The notes: generated by a model from the sequence alone, not told the origin. A stretch of 64,000 nt of DNA from an uncultured virus (IMG/VR IMGVR_UViG_3300028559_000007) (IMGVR_UViG_3300028559_000007), one strand, 5' to 3'. Positions 3-61,813 are shown, counted from the first letter of the stretch. Made by a program: numbers and translations.

Positions 3-1376
3 CAGCTCGCTCTTTTTTAACCCCCTCAAATTTATTTGAGGGGGTATTGACTAAAACTTATATTGAACGGATCTTATGGTGCATTTGCGACGCAATACTT
101 CATACTTTTCAACCAACACGTTGCTGGCACAATTACAGCGCAAGGAAGGGATCTAACTAAAACAATGCATGCTGTAAATGAAAAATACTGGTATACACAA
201 TGGCATTTAGATTATGAGTTACATGCTAGATTGTGTGTAAAAAATGTTACACCAATTTCTAAAAAAAATGGAGAAGAAGTAAGTATCTATGCAGATACAG
301 ATTCACTATTCGTATCGTTTGAACCAGCTATTCAACACTGTGAGTGGAGAAATTTATTTATAAATAATATAGATTTATTAGATTCAAAATTCGCCATATT
401 AGAATATAGACAACAAACAAAAACTGATAACAATAACTGTCTTGGTATTTTTAGAAATACAGATGAGTTAAAAGAATTTTTGGAAAATAATAAGGTAGAT
501 TATTTAATTATTGATGGATATTTTGCTAAAGATAGAGGATTTAATTCACCTGATTTACAAAATGCTTTAAAAGATATTGTAATAAGATGGAACTGGTTTA
601 ATGAATTAGATTTTATTCATGGTATAGACGAATTTAGATTTGGAGGATATTTTAAAAATTGTTTAGAAGAGTATGCTGAAAGTTTTGGAGTTAAAAATCG
701 AGAGGATTTTGAGTTAGAGAGGGTTTCAGAATCTATTATGAATTTTTCTAAAAAGAAATATATACAGAATATTGTATATGAAGACGGAATTCCATTTGAT
801 AGACTATCATATATATTTCCTAAGGGTGTAGAACTTGTAAGATCATCAACACCCTTATTTGCAAGAGAGAAAATCATACAAATTGTTAAATATTTATTTG
901 AGCATCCAGATAATTTTAATATTAAAGATTTGCTTAAATTGGTTAAAAATTTAAGAAAAGAGTTTGAATTGGCTAATATTGATGATATATCAATGCAATC
1001 ATCCTGTTCTAACTATGAAACAAAAGTTTTAGAAGATAAAGATAGATTGAGTTTTGTTTCTGGTGCTCACTTTGCCGTTAAATCAGCAGCTTATTATAAT
1101 TTTCTTCTAAATCAAAATAAAGGATTACAATCTAAATATGAATTTATTAAATCTGGAACAAAGATTAAATATTATCATTGTAAAAATAAGAAGATTAATG
1201 AGATATTTGCTTTTATAAGAGGTTCTTATCCTATTGAATTCGCTCCAGAGGTTGATTATGATTTACAATTTTATAAAACAATTATAAGTCCTATAAATTC
1301 AATTATTACACCACTTGGAATGCCAGAAATAACTAAAAGACTAAGTGTTGTATTAGATATTTTTGGAGGTTTTTAA
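3..1376 (+). CDS. Family B DNA polymerase (T4 gp43-like), C-terminal part; 5' part lies upstream of the window; motif B interrupted by a 39-nt insert (about 12-50)
   Basis: Motif B reads QLAL (3-14) then LKLILNGSYG (51-80) in the same frame; motif C YADTDS, KKKY and KGVE.VRSSTP are present in ORF 63..1376. Confidence 0.93.
12..50 (+). other. 39-nt in-frame insertion with two stop codons and a hairpin inside polymerase motif B
   Basis: TAA 18-20, TGA 48-50, stem ACCCCCTCAAA (20-30)/TTTGAGGGGGT (35-45); removal restores QLALKLILNGSYG. Confidence 0.8.
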
Positions 1377-3618: not shown

Positions 3619-4086
3619 ATGAATATTATAGAAGTTATCAGTTTTATTAGAAAATCAAAAGATCATCATTTTTTATCAGTAGATAAAAAAATCTGGAATA
3701 GATGGTCAATATTAATAAAATTATTTGTTTTACTAAACAAAAATTATGTACCATGTGTTATTTATAGGAAAAAATATAAATTTCTTAAAAATATTGTTAT
3801 AATTGGACTAAAATGGAATGGTAAAAATGTTAAAAGAAGAACTAGTGGATTTGCAAAAGAGTTTTTAAAAAACAATGAAAATGTAAAATGTATTTATTGT
3901 GGATCTAAATTAACAGTAGATAACGCTACAACAGATCATATTATACCAATATCAAAAGGTGGAAACAACTGTCAGATAAACCTTGTCGTTGTTTGTTTTG
4001 ACTGTAATAATGAAAGAGGAGATTTAAACTTTTATGAATATATGAAAATTAAAAATCCTAAATATTTTAAAAGTCATTATTTTTAA
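3619..4086 (+). CDS. HNH endonuclease
   Basis: CIYCG..TTDHIIPISKGG..NLVVVCFDCN. Confidence 0.9.
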   Translation: MNIIEVISFIRKSKDHHFLSVDKKIWNRWSILIKLFVLLNKNYVPCVIYRKKYKFLKNIVIIGLKWNGKNVKRRTSGFAKEFLKNNENVKCIYCGSKLTVDNATTDHIIPISKGGNNCQINLVVVCFDCNNERGDLNFYEYMKIKNPKYFKSHYF

Positions 4087-5260
4087 AAGATTTTAAATAA
4101 TCTTTTTCAGTTTTAATACTTTTTCTGTAAATATTTTTAGGTAAATATTTTATATCAAATAAATCATTTGAAAAAAAATTATATATATTTAATTTTTTAA
4201 AAGAATTAGGTACTAATTCATTAAGTTTATTTAAATCCTTTACTTTAGAAATTCTATATAAAAGCTTGTGAGGATCATCAGACTTTTTTTTAGATATAAT
4301 ATCTTCAAATAATTTTTTCCATAGAAATACCTTACCACCTTCTCTTATTTTTTCTTCTGATTTATTAAATCCTGCTGTATCATTATCGAAAAAATATTGC
4401 AAATCTAAATTGTTATTTTCTAAAAATTGCAAATCTGTATTTACTCCAACTATACCAATTGAATTTGGATAAAATAGAGAATCTAAATATCCTTCAAAGA
4501 TTGTTATTGTATTTTCAAAATTAACATTTAGAATATTAAAAAAATATGATAATTTATTATAAATAACGGACTTATGAATATCTAGTTCAACATCTTCACC
4601 ATGTATCCATTTATAAATAGATTCCCAATTATAAATAACAAAAAATCTCCTACGTCCTTCTTTTAGATTACGAACTTGCAATCCTAATACTTTATCTTCT
4701 CTTCTATTTAAGAATACGATAACATGTTCAAATCCTTCATCACCTTTAGAAAATTTAGCTTGGTATATATTTTTATGTAACTCTTTTGGAATACCGCGAC
4801 CTATTAAATATTTAAATACACCACTTCTTTCATTAATAGGGGCAAAGTCAAATATAGGTGTAGTTTTTTTAACATTAAATAGTTCTTCTAATTCTTTCAT
4901 ATTAATTAGATCATCTAATTTGAAATCTGCAAGATCTGTATCATAGTCAGAATAACTAACAATTGAATCTAAATATTCAATCATTTCAAGTTTTTTCTGA
5001 GGATCTATGACTTCATCAAAATCAGTAGCCATTCTATCAAATGAAGTTTTTTTATCACATCTGAAACAAATGAAGAATAATTTATTAAAATAAAGATTAC
5101 CTCTTTTTTTGTGTTGAGATTTACCTTCTTTACAATAAGGACATCGCATATTTATACGATCTTCATAAACAATAACCTTTCTAAATATTGGCGATGTAAA
5201 TTCTTTATCTAATAAATTTTGAATAATACTTTGTATATAAACTTTATCCATATATATCAT
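4067..5260 (-). CDS. DNA primase (T4 gp61-like)
   Basis: Zn finger CPYC..CFRC; TOPRIM motifs IFEGYLDS and FFDNDTAG; KDLN. Confidence 0.9.
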   Translation of the reverse strand: MIYMDKVYIQSIIQNLLDKEFTSPIFRKVIVYEDRINMRCPYCKEGKSQHKKRGNLYFNKLFFICFRCDKKTSFDRMATDFDEVIDPQKKLEMIEYLDSIVSYSDYDTDLADFKLDDLINMKELEELFNVKKTTPIFDFAPINERSGVFKYLIGRGIPKELHKNIYQAKFSKGDEGFEHVIVFLNRREDKVLGLQVRNLKEGRRRFFVIYNWESIYKWIHGEDVELDIHKSVIYNKLSYFFNILNVNFENTITIFEGYLDSLFYPNSIGIVGVNTDLQFLENNNLDLQYFFDNDTAGFNKSEEKIREGGKVFLWKKLFEDIISKKKSDDPHKLLYRISKVKDLNKLNELVPNSFKKLNIYNFFSNDLFDIKYLPKNIYRKSIKTEKDYLKSFKNNDF

Positions 5261-52306: not shown

Positions 52307-52511
52307 TTGATTTTAACATATCATTAAAGTCAATATCAATCACACCATCTAAATCACTATAAAGTTCTCTTAAAATCATCTTTAACCTAACCATTTCATC
52401 ATCCGAAAGCAAACCATCATTCAGTTTATTTCCAAAAACAACTTTTGACATTCCCATTTTCTGAGCCAATAATGTTTGGTTCAATTTCCATTTTTTAATT
52501 ACTTCTAACAT
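52299..52511 (-). CDS. Small HTH protein downstream of the transposase
   Basis: LNQTLLAQKMGMSK. Confidence 0.65.
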   Translation of the reverse strand: MLEVIKKWKLNQTLLAQKMGMSKVVFGNKLNDGLLSDDEMVRLKMILRELYSDLDGVIDIDFNDMLKSII

Positions 52512-53439
52512 TTTTTAATTCTTTATAGGTTAAACGATTGTTAATATTATTAAGGACATAATCAAATCTATAACTTTCTGAAAATCCACGAGTGTTATAT
52601 CTGAAAACAAATTCATCAACATATCTTTGTAAATGTTTCTTACTCATTGAATGATAAATACCCATTATTCCTCTCTTCAAAATTGCCCAAAATCCTTCAA
52701 TTGTATTTGTGTGAATATCACCTTTAACATATTCCTTACTATTGTGTTTTACAACATTATGATCAAAGATTTTAGATAATCCTTTATATCCTAACCATTC
52801 ATCAGTATTTAACGGATTTCCTGATTTTAAGTTTTTGTGTATAAACTTCTTCAAGATTTCTCCTGATGTTCCATCTACAACATTGGCTCTCAATTCGCCA
52901 CCTCTTTTAATAATTCCAACAACTGGGATTTTAGTTTTCAAACTTCTACCTTGTGTTCCCTTTGTCTTTTTACTTTGATGTTTATTCTTTTCTTGACCAC
53001 CAATATAAGTTTCATCTGCTTCACAAGTTCCTTCTAATTTATCAGTTGGTTGATTATTTAATCCTAAACTATGTCTAACTCTATGAAGCATAAACCAAGC
53101 AGTTTTTTGAGTAATTCCTAAATCTTTGTGTAATTGTAAAGATGATATACCTTTCTTATGCGAAGTTATAAGATAAATAGCAGCAAACCATTTTTGTAGA
53201 GATATTTTACTTCCTTCAAACATTGTTCCAACTCTTACTGAAAATTGTTTCTTACATTTATCACACTTATAAACTTTACCATTACTATATTTGAAAACTT
53301 TATCGTGCTTACAATCTTCATAAGGACAGGTTATATTACCATTCCATCTAATTTGTTCCAAATATTCTCTACACACTTGTTCATTATTGAAGTATGTGAA
53401 AAGTTGGACTAAATTATTGAATTTCTGTAAGATTATCAT
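52495..53439 (-). CDS. IS1595-family DDE transposase
   Basis: Zn ribbon CPY..C..CDKC, GISSLQL..TAWFM.HR, EADETY.GG, TDEW..Y, HTNTIEGFW. Confidence 0.96.
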   Translation of the reverse strand: MIILQKFNNLVQLFTYFNNEQVCREYLEQIRWNGNITCPYEDCKHDKVFKYSNGKVYKCDKCKKQFSVRVGTMFEGSKISLQKWFAAIYLITSHKKGISSLQLHKDLGITQKTAWFMLHRVRHSLGLNNQPTDKLEGTCEADETYIGGQEKNKHQSKKTKGTQGRSLKTKIPVVGIIKRGGELRANVVDGTSGEILKKFIHKNLKSGNPLNTDEWLGYKGLSKIFDHNVVKHNSKEYVKGDIHTNTIEGFWAILKRGIMGIYHSMSKKHLQRYVDEFVFRYNTRGFSESYRFDYVLNNINNRLTYKELKNVRSN

Positions 53440-54079: not shown

Positions 54080-54793
54080 TTATATTAACTTATTTTTTAT
54101 TAATTTATCATTAAAATCACCACTTCTTTCAAAATATTTATTTACAACTTTAAAAGATTTATTTACAAATCTACCACTTGATGTTTTAATAACAATTCCT
54201 TCTCTAATACCATTTCTATAATCAGAATTTTTCTCAGACCATTCAACAATATCTGAAATAGAATTAATTTTTAATTTAATAGGTTTAATATATTTAATAT
54301 TTGTTTTAGATAATAATTCTTCAACTACTTCAGGTGATAAAAACTCATAATCCTCAGCAGACCATATATCATAAGCTATAAATAAATCAGGAATTTTGTC
54401 ATAATATAAGGAATGTTTTGCAAACATCCACTCACCATATATTGTAATTGGTGAATAACACAACTCACTAATAATTTTAATATCATCTTCATGTTTATGA
54501 ATCCAATTCCAAGCTGATGTGAATTGCATCTTAGCAGGTGTTTTTATTTTAGTATATCCTTTTTTAAGAATATGACTTCTATTTCGAAGAATGGGTCCAT
54601 CTGTCCAAGATATACCCATATTAGCACCATCAATTTTTTCTTGAATAAAACACTCAAATGGAAATTGCATAGGAGTATCTAACTCGATATCATCGTGAGT
54701 CATATTAGAAATTTCTTTACTAAAATGTGGTATTCTCCAATAGTCTGGGGCAATATTTCTAATTTTCATTTTCTGTATTTTTATATTTATCAT
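54080..54793 (-). CDS. ATP-dependent RNA ligase family protein
   Basis: EKIDGAN, YGEW, FIAYDI, EGIVIK, FKVV; likely start 54769. Confidence 0.85.
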   Translation of the reverse strand: MINIKIQKMKIRNIAPDYWRIPHFSKEISNMTHDDIELDTPMQFPFECFIQEKIDGANMGISWTDGPILRNRSHILKKGYTKIKTPAKMQFTSAWNWIHKHEDDIKIISELCYSPITIYGEWMFAKHSLYYDKIPDLFIAYDIWSAEDYEFLSPEVVEELLSKTNIKYIKPIKLKINSISDIVEWSEKNSDYRNGIREGIVIKTSSGRFVNKSFKVVNKYFERSGDFNDKLIKNKLI

Positions 54794-54932: not shown

Positions 54933-55204
54933 CTTTTTAATATACTTTGTATTAATTTATCTAAGTTATATTCTCGTAAATTAGTCTCCTCAACTTTTAC
55001 ATGAACTTTACTTTGTCTTATTTTTTCTATTTTAAGTATTCTAAGATACTTGCTATTCCAATATACTAAATTATCATTAGAATTTATAAAGTTAATAACT
55101 TCTTTATTGTTTTTAAACTCTAAAATAACAATTCCCGGTAAATGATCAAATTTTGTTAATTTCCATCTATCTTGATTGGATAAAACTTTTGCGTGTTGTA
55201 TCAT
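54929..55204 (-). CDS. Hypothetical protein (REYNLDKLI tail)
   Basis: ORF in ligase operon. Confidence 0.6.
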   Translation of the reverse strand: MIQHAKVLSNQDRWKLTKFDHLPGIVILEFKNNKEVINFINSNDNLVYWNSKYLRILKIEKIRQSKVHVKVEETNLREYNLDKLIQSILKR

Positions 55205-55859
55205 ATATTTCTAATAGTTTTTTATCTCCGTTAAGTTCTTCAAGAAGAGCTCTTTCTCCATGTAAAGTCTTTACTTTTTGAATCCAATCAATAGTTTTAA
55301 CTTTTACCATCCAAATTTCATCTTTTTGTTTTTTCGTTTTTGAAATACCTTTAACAATGACTCCCTCTTTTAATTTATATTTATTGTTTCTAATATCTTG
55401 AACAAAATCCATTGTATATTTTCCCTTATAAATAATATCTGGTATATGTAAATGTCCAAAATCTTCAATAAAGTTTTTTGGAGTAACAAATCCATGTTTA
55501 TATTGGTCAACATCAAATAGTATAATATCTTTTGGATCACTATCAATATGACGACCAGCAAAGGATTCATCTCCAAAATATTCAGCAAATACTAAAAAAC
55601 TTTCAATTCGTTTATAACTTTTATTTGTTCTGAATACTTTAGGAAGACTATCACCATACTTATTTAAAAATAGTGTGATAGCCTCTCCAAATTGTAAATC
55701 TCTTTCATCAATCATTATATTTCTGGTTCCAAATTTATACCATCCTCTTTTAGGATTCCATTCAGCACGAATATTACTACCATCTAATTTATCAAATGCA
55801 TAGATGTCTTCGTTAAATATACCCTGGTTAAAATATTGTATTCTTGGATAACTTTTCAT
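55167..55859 (-). CDS. RNA ligase-like nucleotidyltransferase
   Basis: DKLDGSN, FAEY, LFDV, EGVIVK, VKVK. Confidence 0.85.
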   Translation of the reverse strand: MKSYPRIQYFNQGIFNEDIYAFDKLDGSNIRAEWNPKRGWYKFGTRNIMIDERDLQFGEAITLFLNKYGDSLPKVFRTNKSYKRIESFLVFAEYFGDESFAGRHIDSDPKDIILFDVDQYKHGFVTPKNFIEDFGHLHIPDIIYKGKYTMDFVQDIRNNKYKLKEGVIVKGISKTKKQKDEIWMVKVKTIDWIQKVKTLHGERALLEELNGDKKLLEIYDTTRKSFIQSR

Positions 55860-57127: not shown

Positions 57128-57562
57128 TTACCAACCAATATTTTTACTTAAACTTGAATTAAATCCACCAAAATGATTAAATAATCTATCTTTCATATAT
57201 TCACCAGCTTTACCATGAAATAATTTATTATCTGAACTACCATGTCTCCAAAGGTATGCTAACTCACGGTGTGACATACTATCGATCTTTTCTTTGTCTT
57301 CTGGTGATAATTCTTCTTCTTTATTCTCGTTTAATTTGGAAAAAGAGTTGAAATTTAAAATCTTACACTCTTTAACTTTTTCAGGTAAGTTTTTATGTTT
57401 AGTTTTTGCAAATTTCTTTAATTGTTCTTCGGTCATTGAGTTGGCTAATTTCTTTATTTCATCAGCATATTGAGGACTTAAATCTTTAAATTTAACATCG
57501 CCTCTTTTATAAGCAAGTGCTTGGGCCATTAACCGTTGTTGAGCTATTGATTTAGACGGCAT
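57128..57562 (-). CDS. DUF3008-like protein
   Basis: MPSKSIAQQRLM..SMTEEQLKKFAKTKHKNLPEK. Confidence 0.7.
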   Translation of the reverse strand: MPSKSIAQQRLMAQALAYKRGDVKFKDLSPQYADEIKKLANSMTEEQLKKFAKTKHKNLPEKVKECKILNFNSFSKLNENKEEELSPEDKEKIDSMSHRELAYLWRHGSSDNKLFHGKAGEYMKDRLFNHFGGFNSSLSKNIGW

Positions 57563-57626
57563 ATAAGTATTTAATTTTACTTATATATTAACTATAATTA
57601 TTGACTTTTATAAATTGTATCGAAAG

Positions 57627-57715
57627 CAGAGGTAGCCGTAATCGAAACGGGCCCGTCATTACACGGTTCTTGTTTTCCAAACAAGCGAGAGCCACCTGCT
57701 CTACCTACTACCTCT
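57627..57715 (-). tRNA. tRNA-Ser(GGA)
   Basis: AGAGGTA/TACCTCT acceptor, CTTGT-TTGGAAA-ACAAG, long variable arm; non-canonical T arm. Confidence 0.8.
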
Positions 57716-57722
57716 AAATTTG

Positions 57723-57795
57723 TAGTTCCAGTGAGATTCGAACTCACATTATATCTTTCGCAAAGATATGTCCTATCCAATTGGACGATGGAACC
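57723..57795 (-). tRNA. tRNA-Arg(GCG)
   Basis: Full cloverleaf; TATCT-TTGCGAA-AGATA. Confidence 0.88.
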
Positions 57796-57801
57796 TAATT
57801 T

Positions 57802-58500
57802 TTATTTTACTCTACCTCTTAATATATCTGAAATTGTACTTCTAGCACATCCTAATCTTAATGATATTTCTTTATTTGTTAGTCCTTCTTTGTGCCACTC
57901 AAAGACAATTTCTCTATCTATTTTTTTTGAAATTTTTTTTATTTTATAGTTTTTTATTAAATCTATATTTTCTATATAAAAATTCATATCAAAATGTTCA
58001 GAAACGTGACAATTAGAACAAAGTACTTCACATTTTTTTATCTCATTTTTAATAATATTATTCAATTCATGTATTGAGTTTAATCTCTCACTCAAAGATC
58101 CAATTGAAAATGTTTTTTCATTCGGATCTCGATGGTGAAATGTCAATCCTGATGCACACTTATTATATCCACATTTTACACATTTAGCACCGGCATATTC
58201 TAAATAGATAATTTTATCATTTCTTCTTTTATCATTTATGTTTGACTTCTCTGAAAAATGTAATTCTCTATGGCAATTTTGACATAGTAATTGACACTTT
58301 TTAGCTTCCTTTAATATCATGTCAAAAGAACAAGATGATTTCTCACTAATTCGGAACTCTTTTTCTTTATCAACATGATGAAAACAGAGATGTATAAAAT
58401 CATCATTTCCACATATCTGACAACATCCACCTAATTCACTTACTAATAAAATTTTATTTTTTATTCTTCTTATTTTTTGTAATATGTTCTTATTACTCAT
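57802..58500 (-). CDS. Homing endonuclease with two HNH-like domains and C-terminal HTH, inside the tRNA array
   Basis: Two CxxCG..FHH..C..LCxNCH units; NKEISLRLGCARSTIS. Confidence 0.85.
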   Translation of the reverse strand: MSNKNILQKIRRIKNKILLVSELGGCCQICGNDDFIHLCFHHVDKEKEFRISEKSSCSFDMILKEAKKCQLLCQNCHRELHFSEKSNINDKRRNDKIIYLEYAGAKCVKCGYNKCASGLTFHHRDPNEKTFSIGSLSERLNSIHELNNIIKNEIKKCEVLCSNCHVSEHFDMNFYIENIDLIKNYKIKKISKKIDREIVFEWHKEGLTNKEISLRLGCARSTISDILRGRVK

Positions 58501-58542
58501 GGTCGAGTTTTATTTTTATATATAAAAATAAAACTCGACCAT
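58499..58542. promoter_or_regulatory. Perfect 44-bp palindrome overlapping the endonuclease start codon
   Basis: ATGGTCGAGTTTTATTTTTATA/TATAAAAATAAAACTCGACCAT. Confidence 0.8.
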
Positions 58543-58553
58543 TTGTACTTTTG

Positions 58554-58645
58554 CGGAAGTGGTGAGTGCCGACCTCACTCGCCGGTTTTTAGCCGGCCTA
58601 TCACGTTAGCAATGTGACCCCTTTGCCATCATTGGGTACACTTCC
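58554..58645 (-). tRNA. tRNA-Ser(GCT)
   Basis: GGAAGTG/CACTTCC acceptor, loop TTGCTAA, long variable arm; T loop GTCGGCA. Confidence 0.8.
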
Positions 58646-58712
58646 AAAAATAAGAATACAAGGGTTACCAATCTTTACCAGTGGTTAATTGGTGGCTTAT
58701 ATATTCTTTAAG

Positions 58713-58801
58713 CGGAGGTAACAGGAGTCCAACCTGTACGCCGGAGTTTCACCGACCTAGCCGTTTTCAAGACGGTGTACCTCTGTCAACTGGGTACCTC
58801 C
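58713..58801 (-). tRNA. tRNA-Ser(TGA), atypical D and T loops
   Basis: GGAGGTA/TACCTCC, CCGT-CTTGAAA-ACGG, long variable arm. Confidence 0.7.
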
Positions 58802-58809
58802 AAAATTTG

Positions 58810-58898
58810 AGGAGGAAATCAGATTCGAACTGATGAATCATATTTCTACGATTTTCGCTTTTCAAGAGCGACGGAATAAACCACTCTCCCATTCCTCC
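58810..58898 (-). tRNA. tRNA-Ser(TGA)
   Basis: Canonical class II cloverleaf; TCGCT-CTTGAAA-AGCGA. Confidence 0.88.
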
Positions 58899-58904
58899 AA
58901 TAAT

Positions 58905-58977
58905 TCGGTGTCATTCTCCTATTATGATACTATGTGTAGCTATTTCACACGATGGGATTCGAACCCACATCTACCGA
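58905..58977 (-). ncRNA. Circularly permuted tRNA-like RNA (YrlA-type arm order)
   Basis: TCGGT/ACCGA closing stem, then T arm GTGGG-TTCGAAT-CCCAT, loop-closed stem GTGTG/TACAC, D-like arm TCAT-AATAGGAGA-ATGA. Confidence 0.65.
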
Positions 58978-58980
58978 TTG

Positions 58981-59059
58981 ACCTCCAGGTGAGATTCGAA
59001 CTCACATCTATCCGTTACGGTATTTAACTTGTTTCGAAGACAAGGCCGATACAGGAGGT
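58981..59059 (-). tRNA. tRNA-Arg(TCG)-like RNA lacking a D arm, with extended variable region
   Basis: ACCTCC/GGAGGT acceptor, CTTGT-CTTCGAA-ACAAG, GTGAG-TTCGAAT-CTCAC. Confidence 0.65.
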
Positions 59060-59062
59060 TAT

Positions 59063-59102
59063 AAAATAAAAAATCCTCGAACTTTTTCAAATTCGAGGAT
59101 TT
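59063..59102 (-). terminator. Attenuator terminator upstream of the Ser/Arg tRNA block
   Basis: AAATCCTCGAA/TTCGAGGATTT stem plus U-tract on minus strand. Confidence 0.85.
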
Positions 59103-59127
59103 CGTGTATTTTTATTTTAGCAATACA

Positions 59128-59196
59128 TTACCATCTTCGAATTTTATTCGAACTACGACTTGACGACGATAATGATGTATTGTTCATGATTTTCAT
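59128..59196 (-). CDS. Ser/Arg-rich leader peptide MKIMNNTSLSSSSRSSNKIRRW
   Basis: 7 Ser and 3 Arg codons in 22; lies between promoter and terminator; overlaps antiterminator segment. Confidence 0.8.
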   Translation of the reverse strand: MKIMNNTSLSSSSRSSNKIRRW

Positions 59197-59211
59197 ATTA
59201 TTTATATATTA

Positions 59212-59243
59212 CAAATATACTTTTTTGTTTTTAAATTTCCAAA
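59212..59243 (-). promoter_or_regulatory. Bacteroidota-type promoter (TTTG-20-TATATTTG) directly followed by TAATATATA
   Basis: Exact consensus match. Confidence 0.75.
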
Positions 59244-59249
59244 TTTTAT

Positions 59250-59747
59250 TTAAAAATTATCTGATACTTCTCTAATTTCTTTATATTTTTCATAAAATAC
59301 AAACATTTTTTCTGCATCACTTATGTTAAGATATTTTAAAGAAAAGAATGTTGGCATTCCATTTACTGAAGTTGGTCCGGCTTGATCTAAATATTCATAG
59401 ATAAGTCCTATATTTCCCAAGAATACTTTTTTAAAAATTTTATATTCTTGATTATATAATATAATATCATTATCATATTTTTTTTGTTCAATCTCTCTAT
59501 CAACAATATCATAAATTACATTATCTCTTTTACCAGATAATGTACTATTTTCTGATGGATAAGATGGTGATTTAGGAACATCGGGCCCAATAAACATTAA
59601 ACACATGAAACAACTATTAACATCAGAAGATGATCTACAGTGGCGGTCAGTATATATGATTCCATTATATAGATCTTTAGCTATTTTTTTTAGTTCATCT
59701 TCTGTTGATGAATTAATAGTCCATTTATTTATCCAATCTTGTTCCAT
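59250..59747 (-). CDS. Hypothetical protein
   Basis: ORF; IYEYLDQAGP..VNGMP.F motif. Confidence 0.65.
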   Translation of the reverse strand: MEQDWINKWTINSSTEDELKKIAKDLYNGIIYTDRHCRSSSDVNSCFMCLMFIGPDVPKSPSYPSENSTLSGKRDNVIYDIVDREIEQKKYDNDIILYNQEYKIFKKVFLGNIGLIYEYLDQAGPTSVNGMPTFFSLKYLNISDAEKMFVFYEKYKEIREVSDNF

Positions 59748-59764
59748 TTTGTAAATATAATAAT

Positions 59765-60061
59765 TTATTCAATTATATCATTTAAAACTTTACCAAATTG
59801 TATAATATATTGCTCAAGTAATCTAAACTCATTATCTGAATCACCATCAAGTCTATAATGTCTGAAGTTTTTTATATCCATAAATCTCATTTCATAACCA
59901 CAATTAAATGGTGTTTCTATCTGATTAGTGTAGAAAATAGTAAATACTAATCTAGCATTTCCAGAATTAACTCCTTGAACCCATACTTTTGTAATATTAG
60001 GTCTTAATCTAGAGTTAATAATATCTCTTAATTTAATTAATGTAATTGAGAATGTGTCCAT
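59765..60061 (-). CDS. Hypothetical protein
   Basis: ORF. Confidence 0.6.
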   Translation of the reverse strand: MDTFSITLIKLRDIINSRLRPNITKVWVQGVNSGNARLVFTIFYTNQIETPFNCGYEMRFMDIKNFRHYRLDGDSDNEFRLLEQYIIQFGKVLNDIIE

Positions 60062-60086
60062 ATAATTATTTATTTTTAAAGATTTG

Positions 60087-60215
60087 CGGGGAGGGTTGGA
60101 TTCGAACCAACGACTTATATGTTCAAAATATACGAAGTAACTCTTTCGATCAACACTCTTTTCAGAGGTAAAGTTTCAAAAGAGATAGTTTACTCTACCA
60201 CTGAGCTACCTCCCC
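60087..60215 (-). ncRNA. tRNA-like RNA with about 55-nt insertion after the D arm
   Basis: GGGGAGG/CCTCCCC acceptor, D arm GCTC-AGTGGTA-GAGT, T arm GTTGG-TTCGAAT-CCAAC, inserted hairpin CTCTTTT..GAAAAGAG. Confidence 0.7.
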
Positions 60216-60220
60216 ATTTG

Positions 60221-60303
60221 TGGAACTGGTGGGACTCGAACCCACGACGTGATTTATCAGGCGGCTTAAGAGGCCGATGCAATCGCCACTATGCGACAGT
60301 TCC
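60221..60303 (-). tRNA. tRNA-Lys(CTT) with long variable arm
   Basis: CGGC-CTCTTAA-GCCG; variable arm TGAT-AA-ATCA. Confidence 0.82.
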
Positions 60304-60308
60304 GAATG

Positions 60309-60394
60309 TGTGCCTGGTGGGATTCGAACCCACGATGTGGTATTAACCAGACGGTTTAAAAGACCGTTGCTCTCAGCCGCTGAGCGACAAGCAC
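60309..60394 (-). tRNA. tRNA-Lys(TTT) with long variable arm
   Basis: ACGGT-CTTTTAA-ACCGT; variable arm TGGT-TAAT-ACCA. Confidence 0.82.
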
Positions 60395-60399
60395 ATTAG

Positions 60400-60482
60400 T
60401 CCGTCCGGTAGAATTCGAATCTACGATGTCACAAGGAGTCAGATTAAAAGTCTGATGGTATCAGCCACTCACCCACGGACGG
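60400..60482 (-). tRNA. tRNA-Lys(TTT) with long variable region
   Basis: TCAGA-CTTTTAA-TCTGA; 14-nt variable region. Confidence 0.8.
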
Positions 60483-60495
60483 ATTATATATTTTG

Positions 60496-60568
60496 TGCGT
60501 CCGAAGGGATTTGAACCCTTAACCTGCTGGTTAAAAGCCAGCTACTCTAACAATTGAGTTACGAACGC
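60496..60568 (-). tRNA. tRNA-Lys(TTT)
   Basis: Class I cloverleaf; GCTGG-CTTTTAA-CCAGC. Confidence 0.9.
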
Positions 60569-60611
60569 GGTTTACTTTCGGGTCGGTTCGTGAATCAACC
60601 ACTTACCAACC

Positions 60612-60653
60612 CTATCGTTTATATTTTCGTTTTATTATTGTAATAGTTCTCAT
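60612..60653 (-). CDS. Lys/Arg-rich mini-ORF MRTITIIKRKYKR ahead of the Lys tRNAs
   Basis: 13 codons; stop overlaps hairpin 60580-60612. Confidence 0.45.
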   Translation of the reverse strand: MRTITIIKRKYKR

Positions 60654-60746
60654 TTTATTATAATTTTTTAGGTCAATTCGATGTAGCTTATAACACCTCG
60701 ATTTAATCTTCTGTTCGTATGAAGAACTTCTCGAATTAACATTTAG

Positions 60747-60817
60747 CACGAGTGGCTACAATCGAAGTAGCTCGTGAAGATTTTGGAGATCCCACCGACA
60801 CCAAGCCTGTCACCCGT
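60747..60817 (-). tRNA. tRNA-Trp(CCA), atypical D arm
   Basis: ACGGGTG/CACTCGT, GGGAT-CTCCAAA-ATCTT, CTAC-TTCGATT-GTAG. Confidence 0.7.
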
Positions 60818-60822
60818 ATTTG

Positions 60823-60895
60823 TGGTTTCAGACGGACTTGAACCGCCGACGCTCGCCTCTTCAGGGCGACGCTCTACCAACTGAGCTATGAAACC
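60823..60895 (-). tRNA. tRNA-Phe(GAA)
   Basis: Canonical; TCGCC-CTGAAGA-GGCGA. Confidence 0.93.
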
Positions 60896-60900
60896 TTTTG

Positions 60901-60990
60901 CATACTCGTAGGGATTCGAACCCTCACCAATCGTTAGACCCCTTTCGGAGAGCGGGTTGGAGCCGCCTGGTCACGCCTATGAGCGAGTAC
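60901..60990 (-). tRNA. tRNA-Trp(CCA)-like RNA with extra arm
   Basis: GTACTCG/CGAGTAT, GCGG-CTCCAAC-CCGC, extra GAAA-tetraloop hairpin, T loop TTCGAAT. Confidence 0.65.
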
Positions 60991-60998
60991 ATTTTTTG

Positions 60999-61072
60999 GG
61001 TGAATGACGGGTTTCGATCCCGCTGCCTTAGGTGCCACAAACCTACGCTCTACCAATTGAGCTACAATCACC
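60999..61072 (-). tRNA. tRNA-His(GTG)
   Basis: G-1/C73; TAGGT-TTGTGGC-ACCTA. Confidence 0.9.
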
Positions 61073-61102
61073 ATTTTGTCATCCTGTTAAATCAGGACTT
61101 CG

Positions 61103-61175
61103 TGGAGTCTCCCGGTTACGATCCGGGTCCTCTGGTTTTTCAGACCAGTGCTTCTACCAAGTTAGCTTAGACTCC
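61103..61175 (-). tRNA. tRNA-Phe(GAA)
   Basis: GGAGTCT/AGACTCC; CTGGT-CTGAAAA-ACCAG. Confidence 0.85.
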
Positions 61176-61180
61176 ATTTG

Positions 61181-61253
61181 GGTGTTATATGGGATTTGAA
61201 CCCATCCCCTGGTTTTCACAGAACCAGATGCTTACCACTACAACAACAACACC
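61181..61253 (-). tRNA. tRNA-His(GTG)
   Basis: G-1/C73; TGGTT-CTGTGAA-AACCA. Confidence 0.82.
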
Positions 61254-61255
61254 AT

Positions 61256-61292
61256 AAAAACAAAAAACCCGAATCTTTTGGATTCGGGTTTT
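61256..61292 (-). terminator. Attenuator terminator upstream of the His/Phe/Trp/Lys tRNA block
   Basis: AAAACCCGAATC/GATTCGGGTTTT stem plus U-tract. Confidence 0.85.
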
Positions 61293-61320
61293 GGAATTTC
61301 TCTATCAAAAACTACGATAA

Positions 61321-61425
61321 TTATACTATCTCATTTTTTGGCAGTTCGTTCTTAGTACCGAATCGATGGCTAAAATGCCATTTAAACGATTTACTAAAAG
61401 ATTTATGTGTACGAACTGTTGTCAT
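61321..61425 (-). CDS. Leader peptide MTTVRTHKSFSKSFKWHFSHRFGTKNELPKNEIV
   Basis: 3 His, 4 Phe, 5 Lys, 1 Trp; contains GATTCGG complementary to the terminator 5' arm. Confidence 0.75.
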   Translation of the reverse strand: MTTVRTHKSFSKSFKWHFSHRFGTKNELPKNEIV

Positions 61426-61473
61426 TATTTCTATATATTAAATTTTATTTCTCTCTTTGTTTCTTTTACATTA

Positions 61474-61504
61474 CAAATATACAAAAGTTTTCTGTAATAC
61501 CAAA
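61474..61504 (-). promoter_or_regulatory. Bacteroidota-type promoter (TTTG-19-TATATTTG)
   Basis: Exact consensus match. Confidence 0.75.
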
Positions 61505-61657
61505 TTATTTATTATTTATTTTTATCTTCTATTGTTTACTTGGTAAAATCAGTATTTTTTATTATTTTTAACATTACAAATGTATATAAACTTTTTTAAA
61601 CCACCAAATTAATTTTATTAACAAAATTTTCATATATTTGTGTTATATATAATTATA

Positions 61658-61813
61658 ATGGAAGAAAGACCAAGTAAACCTATAAAAGAATATGCTCCAC
61701 AAGGAACAAAAGATTGTGAATCTAATTGTGAGAGAGAAGTAATAATGACTCCAAGGGGGCCTGTTATTGTTTGCCATTTTTGTGAACGAATAGTTCTTGA
61801 GATTCGCAAATGA
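61658..61813 (+). CDS. Small 51-aa Cys-containing (Zn-ribbon-like) protein absent from the ORF track
   Basis: MEERPSKP..CESNC..CHFC..; TATATTTG upstream at 61633-61640. Confidence 0.55.
   Translation: MEERPSKPIKEYAPQGTKDCESNCEREVIMTPRGPVIVCHFCERIVLEIRK

Follow-up and report, generated by a model that had tools for sequence, protein, structure and literature searches.

The window, by which we mean the whole 64,000-nucleotide stretch analysed here from an uncultured virus (IMG/VR IMGVR_UViG_3300028559_000007), is AT-rich (23-31% G+C) and carries phage genes, among them a family B DNA polymerase fragment, a baseplate spike domain, helicases, HU and two RNA ligases. On its minus strand, a group of Ser and Arg tRNA genes is preceded by a compact unit in which a promoter-like site, a leader ORF and a terminator follow one another. 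The features of this locus are as follows.

59243-59061, minus strand: whole candidate Ser/Arg attenuator unit (promoter-like site, leader ORF and terminator, in that order)
59212-59243, minus strand: promoter-like site by pattern match, with a TTTG box (59243-59240) and a TAnnTTTG box (59219-59212)
59128-59196, minus strand: leader ORF, with ATG, 22 codons and a TAA stop
59164-59182, minus strand: segment 1, the 5′ strand of a long anti-antiterminator hairpin, as placed by minimum-energy folds
59149-59175, minus strand: putative regulatory codon run, codons 8-16, with seven Ser codons, one Arg codon and one Leu codon
59121-59144, minus strand: segment 2, overlapping the last codons and stop of the leader
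59089-59103, minus strand: segment 3, the terminator 5′ arm, of which 59100-59089 doubles as the antiterminator partner
59070-59084, minus strand: segment 4, the terminator 3′ arm, followed by a T-run at 59069-59061
58976-59060, minus strand: noncanonical tRNA-like element (TCG anticodon loop, T arm), a few bases past the terminator
58809-58898, minus strand: tRNA-Ser (TGA), ARAGORN default
58732-58804, minus strand: second Ser(TGA)-like tRNA, relaxed ARAGORN only
58553-58645, minus strand: tRNA-Ser (GCT), ARAGORN default
57802-58500, minus strand: 232-codon ORF inserted within the tRNA cluster, with His-and-Cys motifs and a helix-turn-helix tail (the only domain match is HTH_38)
57722-57795, minus strand: tRNA-Arg (GCG), ARAGORN default
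57626-57715, minus strand: tRNA-Ser (GGA), ARAGORN default

Only Ser and Arg tRNA genes lie downstream of the unit: four default calls, one relaxed-threshold call and a sixth element that is just tRNA-like. An earlier note made from the sequence had listed an Arg(TCG)-like tRNA, two Ser(TGA), Ser(GCT), Arg(GCG) and Ser(GGA). Four of these (one Ser(TGA), Ser(GCT), Arg(GCG) and Ser(GGA)) are default calls. The second Ser(TGA) appears at the relaxed threshold only, with a weak match to the tRNA-Sec model (58801-58714, 25.1 bits), and the Arg(TCG)-like element departs from a canonical tRNA, being called neither by default ARAGORN nor by the Rfam tRNA model at E<=1. This element nevertheless keeps its anticodon stem and T stem relative to L001 5938-6022, with five compensatory pairs. 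The 232-codon ORF, probably a homing endonuclease by its motifs, separates Arg(GCG) and Ser(GGA) from the upstream part of the cluster. A perfect 20-bp palindrome (58499-58542) lies directly before the start of this ORF; its weak matches to microRNA models are surely spurious.

The leader ATG lies about 16 nt 3′ of the TAnnTTTG box. Scored with a start-context matrix built on 43 long-ORF starts of the window, its context ranks at the 97th percentile among 2,186 window ATGs. All of the leader codons that had been listed are present: codons 8-16 read TCA TTA TCG TCG TCA AGT CGT AGT TCG, and codons 20-21 are CGA and AGA. Ser and Arg together make up 10 of the 21 leader residues, against 2.3 expected from the 15,552 residues of the window's long ORFs (binomial P 3e-5). 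The anticodons of the four ARAGORN-called tRNAs downstream read 8 of the 21 leader codons where 1.7 are expected (z 5.1), and downstream anticodons can read 8 of the 9 codons of the run; TTA (codon 9) and AGA (codon 21) are unread by the cluster's tRNAs. The leader favours rare codons. TCG supplies three of the seven Ser codons of the run but just 3% of those for Ser in the long ORFs of the window, and the Arg codons of those ORFs are AGA in 84% of cases, CGT in 4% and CGA in 4%. The Arg codon within the run is CGT, which is read by the cluster's Arg(GCG); in relatives, the reader of AGA, Arg(TCT), belongs to another cluster, whose own leader carries AGA. The leader ORF is presumably translated.

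The promoter pattern has seven matches in the window, of which four precede minus-strand leader units in the interval 56.5-61.6 kb. The bare pattern shows no overall enrichment in the window (7 matches against 4.45 expected). An extended 12-mer of the site is common to two further units, A and D, and it is the extended form only that serves as a unit marker. In the gap from the terminator to the first tRNA-like element, pattern matching found no such site. We take the TTTG/TAnnTTTG pattern to be the Bacteroidota promoter consensus. This type of promoter, together with the branching of some huge-phage synthetases near Bacteroidetes (PMC7162821), suggests a host among the Bacteroidota.

Other units of related layout lie nearby on the minus strand. 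Unit A (61608-61253) has two tandem promoter-like sites, a 34-codon leader (61425-61321) and a terminator (61292-61264). His, Phe and Trp account for 8 of the 33 residues of its leader (2.7 expected), and downstream lie His, Phe, His, a tRNA-like element with a CCA anticodon, Phe and another CCA element; homologues are present in L001 and L002. Unit B (60653-60570) consists of a 13-codon ORF (60653-60612) with three Lys codons directly ahead of four Lys tRNAs. At its stop codon the ORF runs into the foot of a hairpin lacking a T-run, a layout repeated in L001 and L002, and it is perhaps a different type of switch, not an intrinsic terminator. Three of the four tRNA-Lys genes (60220-60482, minus strand) are 84-87 nt long with a long variable arm, and thus of class II shape, which is normal for Ser, Leu and Tyr tRNAs and not for Lys; such long-variable-arm tRNA-Lys genes are conserved in L001, L002 and L063-L069. 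A tRNA-model match at 60087-60215 (minus strand, 129 nt, 46.6 bits) has an insertion of about 55 nt and no ARAGORN call. Unit D (56600-56445) shares its promoter type with the Ser/Arg unit and has an 11-codon ORF and a terminator (56471-56445). Its leader shows no obvious amino-acid bias, the end of the ORF can pair with the terminator 5′ arm, and the genes after the unit code for proteins (an HNH ORF, a small ORF of basic character and an RNA ligase); its homologue in L001 (6760-6910) is followed by a small ORF and a gene resembling histidyl-tRNA synthetase. Beside the tRNA region are genes for an IS1595-type transposase (52495-53439) and for two RNA ligases (54080-54793 and 55167-55859); the two ligases could serve to mend cleaved tRNAs.

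The 181-nt stretch carrying the Ser/Arg unit folds at a minimum free energy of -40.5 kcal/mol against a shuffle mean of -22.9 (z-score -5.15), a value equalled by none of 200 shuffles. The 3:4 terminator with U-tract described in the earlier note was recovered both by folding and by a separate consensus scan, at 59103-59070, with 15 pairs, a 4-nt loop, a T-run and an energy of -19.0 kcal/mol. Its 2:3 pairing was found again as well: 11 of 12 positions pair between 59144-59133 and 59100-59089, at -7.6 kcal/mol as against -19.0 for the terminator. The 1:2 hairpin that it proposed exists (59152-59146 with 59142-59136) but is weak (-4.5 kcal/mol), and the minimum-energy fold prefers a longer 1:2 helix, 59182-59164 with 59139-59121, at -16.8 kcal/mol. 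This long helix is not conserved in the five relatives. Segment 2 is composed of two overlapping parts, 59139-59121 pairing with segment 1 and 59144-59133 pairing with the terminator 5′ arm. A palindromic hexamer occurs inside segments 1-4.

The duplex energy of the antiterminator of this unit is matched by 20 of 500 dinucleotide shuffles, and that of its homologue in W02 by 35 of 500 (W01 and W02 denote the phage genomes LR745206.1 and LR756502.1). In all 16 units with a canonical terminator, the leader-to-arm duplex is stronger than most dinucleotide shuffles (0 to 50 of 500 reach it); three Lys units, from the window, W01 and W02, were excluded from this test by rule as hairpins without a T-run terminator. 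Support for the antiterminator is modest for this unit alone and strong across the 16 units.

We modelled the effect of ribosome position by folding the RNA as it would be before segment 4 is made, with a ribosome footprint masked for each A-site codon. In the ribosome-free fold, segment 2 is taken up by the long 1:2 hairpin and the terminator 5′ arm stays open (1 nt paired). Placing the A site anywhere in codons 2-14 makes 10-11 nt of the arm pair with segment 2 in these folds, and from codon 16 through the stop this pairing is lost. The model therefore predicts that a stall in the run gives read-through and that smooth translation, or none, gives termination, which is the classical logic of an attenuator. 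The suggestion that stalling in the Ser run opens the antiterminator finds support in these footprint folds, in which segment 2 stays free. Codons 15-16 lie near segment 2 and Arg codons 20-21 inside it, so that a stall there would mask segment 2, and the Arg half of the reading is accordingly weakened at those positions. In most of the 16 units the modelled boundary between permissive and non-permissive positions falls just past the cognate codons, with clear exceptions in the Ile/Gly unit of W02 and the Pro/Asp unit of W01. The default state differs among relatives, since the homologues in W01 and W02 adopt the antiterminator even when folded with no ribosome present.

W01 (634,780 bp) and W02 (642,428 bp) are the nearest named records to the window, with about 70% nucleotide identity over the tRNA region and a helicase 73% identical at the protein level. 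Both carry a Ser/Arg unit ahead of their Arg/Ser tRNA clusters. We compared six distinct Ser/Arg units, from the window, L001, L002, L063, L065 and L067; a tRNA-Lys pattern, unrelated to the unit, had led to L063-L067 in viral and metagenome contigs. Ser/Arg content in orthologous leaders, the conservation of which the earlier note had put forward as a check, is kept in all six: each frame is open, Ser/Arg-rich and 22-25 codons long, and indels keep the frame. At Ser positions, codons of the TCN family are exchanged for AGY codons and vice versa, which points to selection on decoding and not on RNA sequence. The 8-bp core of the antiterminator (alignment columns 112-119) is paired in 47 of 48 cells, with two compensatory pairs, and sliding the partner by one to three columns as a control lowers pairing to at most 54%. 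The covariation score of the antiterminator was reached by 10 of 500 column shuffles, on six sequences that come from about three lineages. The terminator is paired in 88% of cells across the six homologues, with three compensatory pairs.

The stretch itself is present in 24 runs, all of them DNA metagenomes. Contigs from three of four lake-water runs revealed a variant strain in which the only Leu codon of the run is replaced by a Ser codon and CGT by CGC, with two further replacements in codons 3 and 6. None of the listed changes falls at 59119-59154 (segment 2 and stop) or in the terminator. A search for close relatives through the neighbouring ORFs 59765-60061 and 59250-59747 returned none in viral_contigs.

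Matching of leaders to clusters extends beyond Ser and Arg. In W01 and W02, each of the eight clusters of at least three tRNAs (His/Phe/Trp; Lys; Ser/Arg; Glu/Tyr; Ile/Gly; Asn/Leu/Val/Ile/Thr; Pro/Asp; Gln) is preceded by its own leader. The true pairing of leaders with clusters is the best of all 40,320 permutations in W01 and again in W02, at the level of both residues and codon-anticodon reading, although the two tests are not independent because the genomes are related. Across 19 of 19 units, the leader ATG ranks between the 81st and 98th percentile of window ATGs and the cognate codons are in frame with the ATG and a stop.

Three more distant genomes, LR756504.1, LR756501.1 and LR756500.1 (helicase 51%, 45% and 36% identical), provided a set outside the data from which the hypothesis was formed. 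Their tRNA grouping differs, and their leaders differ to match. The leader ahead of Arg(tct), Ile and Met is rich in Ile, Arg and Met (11 of 18 residues cognate); five Leu tRNAs follow a Leu-rich leader; and a leader rich in His, Glu, Val and Trp stands ahead of exactly those four tRNAs. With all nine automatically detected units kept, the true pairing is reached by 6 of 362,880 permutations; taken singly, six of the nine have a binomial P <0.05 and three show no enrichment. Among ten further clusters inspected by eye in these genomes, two have a unit and eight have none, so the leader-per-cluster design is not universal there. Leader content, as read from sequence, thus tracks the tRNA content of the cluster in five related phage genomes. 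In the two most distant of them, L088 (LR756501.1) and L093 (LR756500.1), the ARAGORN calls include tRNAs whose CTA anticodon would make them amber suppressors. At L092 (~640-712, minus strand) in LR756500.1, two Ser tRNAs follow immediately on the Ser-rich end of a longer ORF, and no terminator separates them from it.

A search anchored on a tRNA-Arg pattern gave 48 loci, mostly from unrelated phages, and under a strict rule (a terminator at most 150 nt upstream of the tRNA, plus a short ORF) units were found in one of the 48. This locus, L060 (a 168 kb IMG/VR contig, 3890-4560, plus strand), belongs to another lineage and has a sigma-70-like promoter and two units. In one, a 24-codon leader with five Leu codons and a terminator lie ahead of two Leu tRNAs. 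In the other, a 47-codon leader containing all 16 amino acids of the next 17-tRNA array is followed by a terminator.

We propose the following sequence of events. Host RNA polymerase would initiate at the promoter-like site (59243-59212), and a ribosome would load onto the leader ORF a few bases downstream, transcription and translation presumably being coupled in the host. When charged Ser and Arg tRNAs are plentiful, the ribosome would reach the last codons and the stop and cover segment 2 (59144-59133); the 15-bp terminator could then form and transcription would stop ahead of the tRNA genes. Slow decoding of codons 8-14 would instead leave a stalled ribosome that keeps segment 1 open and segment 2 free, and segment 2 would pair with the newly made terminator 5′ arm, so that no terminator forms and polymerase reads through into the tRNA cluster. 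If the ribosome is absent, the long 1:2 hairpin would sequester segment 2, making termination the default. The outcome would be negative feedback, scarcity of usable Ser or Arg tRNA leading to more synthesis of those same tRNAs; the direction of the response to Ser/Arg tRNA supply, like its size, is inferred.

Taken together, the position of the ORF, the codon match, the conserved antiterminator and the footprint geometry all fit the ribosome-mediated attenuation that had been claimed. From sequence and modelling, we consider it very likely that the unit is a working ribosome-mediated (leader-peptide) transcription attenuator gating the phage Ser/Arg tRNA operon. The phage would then probably make its Ser and Arg tRNAs mainly when ribosomes run short of them.

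The closest known parallels are trpL, hisL, pheL, leuL, thrL and ilvL of enterobacteria, leader-peptide attenuators of amino-acid biosynthetic operons. Like these, the phage unit has a promoter-proximal short ORF with a run of codons for the regulated amino acids, predicted mutually exclusive 2:3 and 3:4 helices (with a 1:2 helix in the window's fold that the relatives do not keep), an intrinsic terminator and a predicted choice by ribosome position, and, as in thrL and ilvL, several amino acids are represented in one leader. It differs in that it would control tRNA genes, making the sensed quantity and the product the same class of molecule; in its phage setting, its Bacteroidota-like promoter and a leader that matches isoacceptors by codon; and in belonging to a set of such units in one genome, one per tRNA cluster. 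It is not an amino-acid operon attenuator in the narrow sense, because the genes downstream are tRNAs, plus one inserted ORF. In the pheST operon of E. coli, the pheM leader attenuator controls phenylalanyl-tRNA synthetase. There too, leader-peptide attenuation acts on the decoding machinery and not on amino-acid synthesis, but the product is a synthetase protein, a single amino acid is concerned and the setting is cellular. The Rfam model His_leader (RF00514) matches weakly at 59178-59065, minus strand, over its full length (31.6 bits against a gathering threshold of 49, E 0.022); below threshold and with no His codons in the phage leader, this match reflects a resemblance of architecture, not membership.

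T-box riboswitches bind uncharged tRNA directly, through one specifier codon and the conserved T-box sequence, and require no translation. The T-box family (RF00230) shares with the phage unit the coupling of tRNA status to a choice between terminator and antiterminator in a 5′ leader, and an Rfam model search of 57500-61700 gave no T-box match at E<=1.

Phage T5 (NC_005859) likewise has clustered tRNA genes interspersed with promoters, small ORFs and homing endonuclease genes. Its annotation shows no terminator between promoter and tRNAs and no comparable units, and its small ORFs (27-96 codons) mostly do not match the next tRNA. In T5 (L070, 15618-15893, minus strand), the 91-codon ORF T5.072 has Trp, Glu, Tyr and Phe crowded into one short segment, and the Tyr, Glu, Trp and Phe tRNA genes lie downstream of it, past an annotated promoter; T5.070, before tRNA-Cys, has six Cys but is zinc-ribbon-like. 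Both resemblances may be coincidences. A full-text search of open-access literature turned up no description of leader-peptide attenuation of tRNA genes. The main text of the account of the published related genomes contains neither 'attenuat' nor 'leader' (PMC7162821), and its supplements say that some palindromes may be terminators, with no other pertinent mention. Passages of PMC3082878, PMC4810235 and PMC7412058 hold nothing relevant to leader-peptide control of tRNA genes.

Several other explanations of the locus were weighed. The same architecture might sense general translation capacity, with read-through altered whenever a ribosome on the leader is slow or missing, the Ser/Arg content being a by-product of unit duplication. 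Such a sensor would accommodate the similar N-terminal start of the leaders of different units, the unit D leader that stands before protein genes with no obvious enrichment, and the W01 and W02 folds that form the antiterminator even when free of ribosomes. It sits poorly with leaders that follow their clusters by residue and by codon in five genomes, differing groupings included, with the use of rare TCG and CGN codons, and with the exchange of Leu for Ser within the run of the variant strain. We regard it as unlikely.

Less likely still is that the ORF and terminator form a self-contained micro-gene for a Ser-rich peptide, the tRNAs being unregulated and made by constitutive leak-through or from another start. 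A terminator of -19.0 kcal/mol is strong enough to suit this proposal, yet it lies a few bases from the first tRNA-like element, with no promoter-like site between. Nor would a micro-gene explain why leaders mirror the tRNAs of their clusters (1 of 40,320 permutations in two genomes and 6 of 362,880 in the distant set), or why complementarity between the ORF and the terminator arm is kept through compensatory changes.

The display of tRNA-matching codons in a 5′ leader with a terminator/antiterminator switch could also suggest direct sensing of tRNAs by codon-anticodon pairing, T-box style and without translation. Besides the absence of a T-box match at E<=1, this proposal has against it the good-context ATG and stop that frame the cognate codons in 19 of 19 leaders, the homologue indels that preserve an open frame of 22-25 codons, the swapping of unrelated codon families at Ser positions and the fit of the permissive/non-permissive boundary to a ribosome footprint, and we find it very improbable. 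Finally, chance resemblance in AT-rich DNA, in favour of which stand the palindromic hexamer in segments 1-4 (making some mutual pairing cheap) and the unenriched bare promoter pattern (7 against 4.45), is the least likely reading in view of the fold z-score of -5.15 (0 of 200 shuffles), the Ser/Arg enrichment (P 3e-5), conservation in five other sequences and the permutation tests.

Leader-peptide attenuation has for fifty years been a textbook mechanism for responding to amino-acid supply. Here its logic is apparently wired to tRNA genes, so that the speed of decoding at a codon would set the synthesis of the tRNA that reads it. More broadly, we lean slightly towards the view that huge phages run a modular tRNA homeostat of codon resolution, in which each tRNA operon is gated by a leader written in the codons of its own tRNAs and tops up the limiting species, and in which leaders co-evolve with reshuffled clusters. 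Shortage could be brought about by codon usage unlike that of the host, by host shut-off or by defensive anticodon nucleases of the host that cut tRNAs; the two RNA ligase genes adjoining the array would fit the last of these. If attenuation of this kind is at work, it would explain the sorting of huge-phage tRNAs into clusters by amino acid, and phage tRNA genes would be regulated on demand, not simply added to the host pool. The unit would also offer a small, naturally occurring device for sensing isoacceptor availability that could serve as a reporter, and the old question of what purpose phage tRNAs serve would become directly testable, codon family by codon family.
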